42,237 nt of DNA from the IMG/VR virus record IMGVR_UViG_2880361019_000002, positions 1 to 42,237 of that record. One strand, written 5' to 3'. This DNA is from a virus (taxonomy: Duplodnaviria > Heunggongvirae > Uroviricota > Caudoviricetes). A program made the position numbers and the translations under genes. The notes beneath the pieces are model-generated. The model did no database searches, was not told where the DNA came from, and worked only from the letters and a program-made list of their open reading frames with translations. Below, in pieces: positions 34,480-34,861 of the stretch; position 1 is the stretch's first letter; every line of letters starts with the position of its first letter.

Positions 34480-34861
34480 ATGACACGCAGAACTCAGTTC
34501 AAAGGCAATTCACGTTCGTCGTCGTGAGCGTTTAAAGGCAAAGGCATTAGCTAACGGCGTGCTGGCCCGCGAAGAAGCAATAAGTTCAGAAGTATTACAC
34601 CGCCCTACTCTAAGCAGAGCGCAGATTCAGGCTAAAGGTACTCACGAAACGCCTGAGCGCATAGAAGACGCTAAGCCAATTAAGTTCATGGCACAGGACG
34701 TGATCTGGCAACAGAAAGAATACAGACGCAATCTGGAGCGAGCGGCCATTGTGTACGCGAATGAGTTTGGACATAAGCAACCAGAAACTGGTGTATGTCT
34801 TCCAAACGTAGCCATTTACGCGGCAGGCTACCGGAAATCAAAACAACTGACGGCGAGGTGA
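34480..34861 (+). pseudogene. N: Antiterminator N (H-19B/933W-type), frameshifted after codon 14
   Basis: AGGAGG-ATG start gives MTRRTQFKGNSRSSS then stop; the Arg-rich motif RRRERLKAKALANG and rest of the protein continue in the +1 frame; shift lies in the CGT/TCG repeat at about 34513-34526. Confidence 0.65.

Follow-up and report, generated by a model that had tools for sequence, protein, structure and literature searches.

The DNA analysed here (the window, 42,237 nt at its full length) contains a lambdoid prophage with a backbone similar to that of Stx phages and with the late genes on the minus strand. The window was 100% identical over 20,450 nt to the chromosome of Escherichia albertii 2010C-3449 (CP034212.1), which is a human isolate from 2010 that belongs to ST5390 and carries no stx (PMC10673567, Table 1). 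No stx genes were found in the interval from Q to the lysis genes of the window.

The pL operon, on the plus strand, consists of nutL, N, a cIII thermoregulator element, gam, bet, exo and int. The order of the genes and features leading to N is cI, three accessory ORFs, a terminator-like site, nutL and N, and N is thus the first gene of the pL operon, located 3' of nutL and divergent from the cI/cro region. When compared with their relatives, the cI, cro, cII, O, P, Q, holin, lysozyme, Rz, xis and int genes are of full length. The Rfam search also returned the sRNA STnc100 at 19647-19833 on the minus strand (115 bits, above the gathering score) and a tRNA match at 20682-20754 on the same strand, likewise above this score, both of which are located between Q and the SASA esterase gene.

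Table 1. Features of the prophage and of the N locus. Positions refer to the window unless a contig is named.
Feature	Position	Strand	Remarks
IS3-type transposase ORF A	1-426		window edge
IS66-family element	609-2944		truncates tail-tip gene J
J fragments left	2860-4491 and 7032-7916		
IS21-family element	4672-6974		splits tail-tip gene J
11.4-kb deletion junction region	11391-11723 and 11996-12445	-	partial IS1 and terminase fragment
Complete IS1 in ninG	22572-23339		9-bp target duplication TACGGCTTG; InsA 22627-22902, InsB 22821-23324
nutR	31345-31390	-	3' of cro; boxA-like sequence, dyad spacer, boxB
cro-position gene, 77 aa	31398-31631	-	intact; 234-nt CDS annotated at the equivalent place in relatives
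cI-type repressor, 234 aa, Peptidase_S24	31745-32449	+	intact; length as in relatives
Terminator-like site	33980-34001		
nutL (933W-annotated extent)	34248-34314	+	1 mismatch in 67 nt to the 933W annotation
nutL boxB hairpin	34300-34314	+	GCGCTGACAAAGCGC; exact match to P22 nutL boxB
N Shine-Dalgarno sequence (SD), AGGAGG	34469-34474	+	5 nt 5' of the ATG; read from the sequence; same in 933W and AU5Stx1
N 5' fragment	34480-34527	+	native start, 15 codons, TGA; residues 1-13 as in the native sequence
2-bp (TC) deletion site	34516-34517	+	intact TCTCGTCGTCGT, here TCGTCGTCGT; from alignment and indel census against five relatives
N 3' remainder, +1 frame	34517-34861	+	codons R14-R127 and stop (RRRERLKAK...YRKSKQLTAR, stop)
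cIII thermoregulator element, lambda	35905-35963	+	Rfam, 88.5 bits, above the gathering score
int	40951-42237	+	
Lesion loci of prophages related to the window element at mlrA	L124, 7081-8294; L125, 8549-9762; L123, 2993-3864		

Approximately 11.4 kb of the prophage are missing. The missing stretch starts inside the gene for the large terminase (TerL), reaches almost to where the tape-measure gene ends and includes the capsid, portal and tail-tube genes, and a partial IS1 of roughly 330-350 bp is located at the deletion junction. The remaining TerL fragment contains a nonsense codon (Q150stop) and encodes a truncated terminase of 149 aa. In a comparison of the deletion junction with complete E. 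coli genomes, only its IS1 part was matched, and there was thus no sister lineage with an intact N by which the mutation could be dated. Judged by this gene content, the prophage is a remnant incapable of making particles. An exact-protein lookup found the same truncated terminase of 149 aa in CP034212.1 as well as in SRR15338057, SRR29061324 and GCA_027565975.1, the last of which is only 98.8% identical.

Reading frames and lesion of the N gene

Positions 34469-34527 have the sequence AGGAGG-tctat-ATG ACA CGC AGA ACT CAG TTC AAA GGC AAT TCA CGT TCG TCG TCG TGA, and both this reading of the SD and the translation confirmed the first-pass annotation, in which a strong SD-ATG opened an ORF of 15 codons. 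The frame of the ATG at 34480 ends at the TGA at 34525-34527, with MTRRTQFKGNSRSSS as its product (translation of 34480-34530). The Arg-rich motif (ARM) and the remainder of N had been placed in the +1 frame, and they are indeed found there: this frame is open from 34484 to 34861 (...HVRRRERLKAKALANGVLAREE...AAGYRKSKQLTAR, stop), ends with YRKSKQLTAR and overlaps the ATG frame at 34484-34527. No ATG, GTG or TTG is present in the +1 frame 5' of a GTG at 34559.

Homology of the locus to the N family was indicated both by the Pfam family N_peptide (PF25694), which matched the N remainder with E=3.6e-10 and 40.7 bits against a cutoff of 27.9, and by the identity to the N gene of AU5Stx1 apart from 2 bp, the 3' remainder being 100% identical to AU5Stx1 N at the DNA level. 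The RRRER of the ARM is not in frame with a start codon. Because the ATG frame ends after 15 codons and RRRER is located in a +1 frame that has no start codon, the locus is classified as an N-family pseudogene, not as a functional member.

Alignment with the N genes of 933W (AF125520) and AU5Stx1 (KU977419) bore out the earlier assignment of the gene as N of the 933W/H-19B type and the site of the lesion at cgttcgtcgtcgtgag. The alignment contains a single 2-bp gap, which converts CACGT-TC-TCGTCGTCGTGAG to CACGT-TCGTCGTCGTGAG in the window; besides the deletion there is no difference from AU5Stx1 (519/521 aligned bases identical), and one SNP distinguishes the window from 933W. The same 2-bp gap was found against each of five relatives, namely 933W, AU5Stx1 and three E. 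coli prophages, in an indel census. The lesion was identified by comparison with known intact genes, and chance is therefore not at issue.

Intact N is a protein of 127 aa with the N-terminus MTRRTQFKGNSRSRRRERLKAK, and the deletion is located at codon 13/14, within the ARM (12-RSRRRER-18), where the intact CGT-TCT-CGT-CGT-CGT has become CGT-TCG-TCG-TCG-TGA. The deleted dinucleotide is part of a TCTC repeat at the 5' edge of a (CGT)3 run; one TC was lost from CGT-TC-TC-GTCGTCGT, and its placement is ambiguous (34515/16 or 34517/18). As the alignment has it, the (TCG)3 of the window is partly produced by the deletion, and the net frame offset of +1 results from the loss of 2 bp rather than from a 1-nt indel. 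The first-pass annotation had described a 1-nt shift within a triplet repeat and had proposed a comparison with the N genes of H-19B and 933W; carried out with 933W and AU5Stx1, this comparison upheld the frameshift and not its size, the lesion being a deletion of TC at the border of the repeat.

On the 5' side of the nutL boxB hairpin are a dyad spacer (GATTC/GAATC) and a sequence resembling boxA (CGCACTACTCA), and nutR consists of a boxA-like sequence (CGCTCTTTTC, 31390-31381), a GGAC/GTCC dyad spacer and boxB (TCGCTGACAAAGCGA, 31359-31345). The canonical boxA (GCTCTTTA) had no match in the window, and the boxA-like sequence of nutR was read directly from the sequence. Cognate boxB hairpins are thus present in both nutL and nutR; two boxB matches were found in the window against 0.16 expected by chance, and none of 100 shuffles gave two. 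At the level of sequence, nutL and nutR are intact and only the N protein is broken.

Reality and distribution of the deletion allele

Whether the deletion is a sequencing error was judged on assembled contigs. An exact-protein lookup with the 100-aa remnant that begins at the GTG returned two Logan assemblies of separate SRA runs, in which the ORF is located well within its contig and the neighbouring genes are the same. The Logan contig of SRR3578939 (20 kb) was identical to the window at 12,303 of 12,303 bases and that of SRR31176551 (3.6 kb) at 3,558 of 3,558 bases, and both contain the deletion allele (CACGTTCGTCGTCGTGAG). One of these Logan runs is possibly the read set of CP034212.1, so that two data sets at the least, and perhaps not all three, are strictly independent.

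With a probe of 101 nt that spans the site, 427 places were located among 413 complete E. coli genomes, and the deletion allele was absent from all of them; the best E. coli matches were without exception to the 103-nt form, which is intact, and all identities stayed below 99%. CP034212.1 is missing from this RefSeq set of complete E. coli genomes for taxonomic reasons. Similarly, megablast found the deletion allele in none of 297 phage records, the best of which span 523 bases versus 521 in the query. An exact 38-mer of the deletion allele had no match in species-representative genomes, IMG/VR or JGI metagenomes, and the intact 40-mer was found in at least 120 IMG/VR contigs (allele forms at 34480-34560: deletion, CGTTCGTCGTCGT; intact, CGTTCTCGTCGTCGT). 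As far as these collections indicate, the deletion allele is derived and private to the lineage of E. albertii 2010C-3449.

Rarity alone would fit an error as well as a private mutation, and it is the presence of the same allele in separate assemblies that settles the question. It is very unlikely that N of this genome is intact and that the 2-bp gap is an artefact of long-read assembly. The deletion allele is unique among hundreds of homologues, as an error would also appear, and CP034212.1 is outside the RefSeq complete E. coli set; against an error, however, the deletion occurs in two separately assembled SRA runs, each with a contig that does not differ from the window at any base (100% identity), the 2-bp lesion is outside a homopolymer, which is untypical of systematic error, and the flanking 15 kb show no excess of indels. 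In the region 27000-42237, which is about 99% identical to relatives, the census against five relatives found only two window-specific indels, the N deletion and one at 36253, indicating that the assembly is not riddled with frameshifts. On the evidence of the contigs, the deletion is a real, inherited allele. Thus, of the two explanations offered in the first-pass annotation, a pseudogene and a sequencing error, it was the pseudogene that was upheld by the contigs of the two other SRA runs.

The second window-specific indel, at 36253, is a change from T4 to T3 in the kil-gam spacer, 5' of the gam SD. T4 is present in 5/5 relatives, and T3 is also present in the contig of SRR3578939. This change is probably without effect.

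Predicted consequences for antitermination

The results indicate, with high confidence, that the locus is an inherited N pseudogene of the 933W/H-19B/P22 type, carried by a lambdoid prophage of Escherichia albertii 2010C-3449 that is in decay. The loss of TC from TCTC shifts the frame at codon 13/14, and ribosomes that initiate at the strong SD-ATG would produce a 15-residue peptide without R14-R18 of the boxB-binding ARM and without all that follows, leaving the NusA- and RNAP-binding parts stranded in a frame that has no start codon. H-19B N (ARM 12-RSRRRER-18) is defective in antitermination in vivo and in vitro when it carries R15C, R15P or R18P or when its ARM is changed to Ala (PMC3526286), and N activity is therefore predicted to be lost; we strongly infer a loss of N antitermination in vivo. 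Upon loss of the repressor, the pL and pR transcripts would carry intact nutL and nutR sites with no N bound, transcription would then halt at the early terminators, and the distal pL genes as well as the pR-distal Q and lysis genes would be poorly expressed. An exception might be a cell in which a co-resident prophage supplies N of the same specificity.

It was reasonable to suggest earlier that the prophage is locked out of early antitermination, but this suggestion missed that the prophage is already unable to make particles. Set beside the 11.4-kb deletion, the TerL nonsense codon, the J gene split by IS elements and the ninG insertion of IS1, the N lesion counts as one decay event among several and not as the disabling one.

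Positive selection, with the N frameshift as a step in the domestication of the prophage, is a possible but in our view unlikely alternative to neutral decay. The remnant keeps an SOS-cleavable cI as well as cro, O, P, kil, Q, holin, lysozyme and Rz, and since no particles can be made but the killing and lysis genes are kept, induction would kill the host for nothing. Without N, killing functions distal to pL and pR (Kil and Q-dependent lysis) would stay silent, and immunity and accessory genes would be retained; if there was such selection, the prophage would be one more case of host-protective inactivation of a prophage regulator.

Some antitermination activity might be kept if ribosomes reinitiated at the GTG at 34559 after the 15-codon ORF and produced a shortened N of 100 aa. 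This GTG is in the N frame, 32 nt past the TGA, and the NusA- and RNAP-binding parts of such a product would be intact. However, no suitably placed SD is located ahead of the GTG, and the product would be without residues 1-27 and hence without the whole ARM, in which point mutations or changes to Ala are already sufficient to make H-19B N defective (PMC3526286), making reinitiation to an active N most improbable. The chance that N is expressed by programmed recoding (a +1 or -2 ribosomal frameshift) or is switched on and off by a phase-variable repeat is practically negligible: the shift is indeed next to brief runs of TC and CGT, and both frames cover 34484-34527, but the hundreds of homologues are plain in-frame genes, none with a split arrangement, no slippery motif or prfB-like stimulator was seen on inspection, the repeats are of 2-3 units, far short of those of known contingency loci, and the tract is of equal length in all three data sets of the lineage.

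The preferred reading, an inherited N pseudogene, has consequences mainly for annotation. The locus should be recorded as an N pseudogene (frameshifted), not as the 100-aa 'N peptide' from the GTG at 34559 that gene callers record, and a non-inducible remnant is the appropriate class for the prophage of E. albertii 2010C-3449. The 2-bp deletion could also serve as a handy marker of the E. albertii 2010C-3449 clone. Beyond annotation the significance is little. The gene family (933W/H-19B N) is known, and the small deletion and the decaying prophage are ordinary.

Comparison with known N genes and prophages

Phage lambda N is an antiterminator that acts through ARM-boxB binding and is encoded by the first gene of the pL operon, and its loss blocks delayed-early expression; over most of its length it belongs to a different sequence family. 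N-defective lambda prophages, such as those with N amber mutations, are classical. In comparison with these, the defect in the window is natural, and it is found in a prophage from which morphogenesis genes are also deleted.

The N genes of 933W, H-19B and AU5Stx1 (AAD25425.1, ANJ63818.1; 127 aa) have the same SD as the N locus of the window and are likewise the first gene after nutL, whereas the gene of the window is 2 bases short at codon 13/14, from which no intact protein is possible. P22 gp24, which is intact, shares with 933W N the ARM pattern GN[SA][RK][ST]RR[RH]ER (aligned as F.GN[SA][RK][ST]RR[RH]ER) and the C-terminus LP.VA.YAAG.RKSKQ.TAR, and the boxB of P22 nutL is the same as that of the window. 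The overall identity between P22 gp24 and the 933W type is 39%, and the middle region of the 933W type is 40 residues longer. Searches of PDB sequences with intact 933W N and with a 38-aa ORF in an alternate frame gave no meaningful match. The N peptides deposited there are probably of too little length or similarity to be detected by phmmer, and direct alignments with lambda N and P22 gp24 from phage records were made instead.

Decaying lambdoid prophages are located at mlrA/yehV and at other sites in pathogenic E. coli, and close relatives of the window element adjoin mlrA/yehV. These relatives carry their own IS insertions and frameshifts, the latter in O in 14EC017 and in the portal and tape-measure genes in 14EC001. 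No complete E. coli genome was found to combine the 2-bp deletion in N with the 11.4-kb deletion associated with IS1 and with IS21 and IS66 in J. Among the mlrA relatives, ESDR8 has an IS3 between the terminator of the cI operon and pL, and 14EC001 has an IS3 just 3' of N.

The two classes of locus to which recoding or phase variation would assign the gene were considered and rejected. One was a programmed frameshift gene similar to prfB or dnaX, the arrangement of which was present in 0/427 E. coli places and 0/297 phage records and had 0 matches in the three contig collections. The other was a phase-variable contingency locus; the tracts at the site are only (TC)2, which has become (TC)1, and the adjoining (CGT)3, and no length polymorphism was found across the three data sets of the lineage.

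The annotation of N in RefSeq was also inspected. Of the 40 complete E. coli genomes listed with an intact copy, 39 have no annotation under the match, and only one of the listed RefSeq records names a 'transcriptional antitermination N peptide'. The standard annotation pipeline widely misses N.

In a Rac-like lineage (KilR, exonuclease VIII/RecE, Gam and RecT), the 5' end of N is swapped for an unrelated sequence. An in-frame TGA is located directly 5' of CAT-(CGT)3-GAG (...TGGCGTTGACATCGTCGTCGTGAG), with no start codon before the GTG, and this position of the TGA indicates that the mosaic junction of the Rac-like N is at the same CGT repeat as the lesion in the window. The Rac-like N loci are found in two ENA metagenome contigs (L127, 84-190, and L128, 1-100) and probably in NCBI draft genomes (L129-L133).

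The 38-aa ORF (34795-34911, plus strand) is located in another frame over the 3' end of N and has the terminus ...VTCVGRQKMKLGSKPLI. It matches the C-terminal 17 residues of lambda N (ITCSGRQKIKGKSIPLI) at 11/17 positions (pairwise E=2e-05), and the 3' DNA of P22/933W-type N therefore encodes a C-terminus of lambda-type N in another frame. Between the two N lineages, a frameshift seems to have left this ORF behind as a fossil, and a lambda-type N C-terminus in the other frame was reportedly noted in the 1980s.
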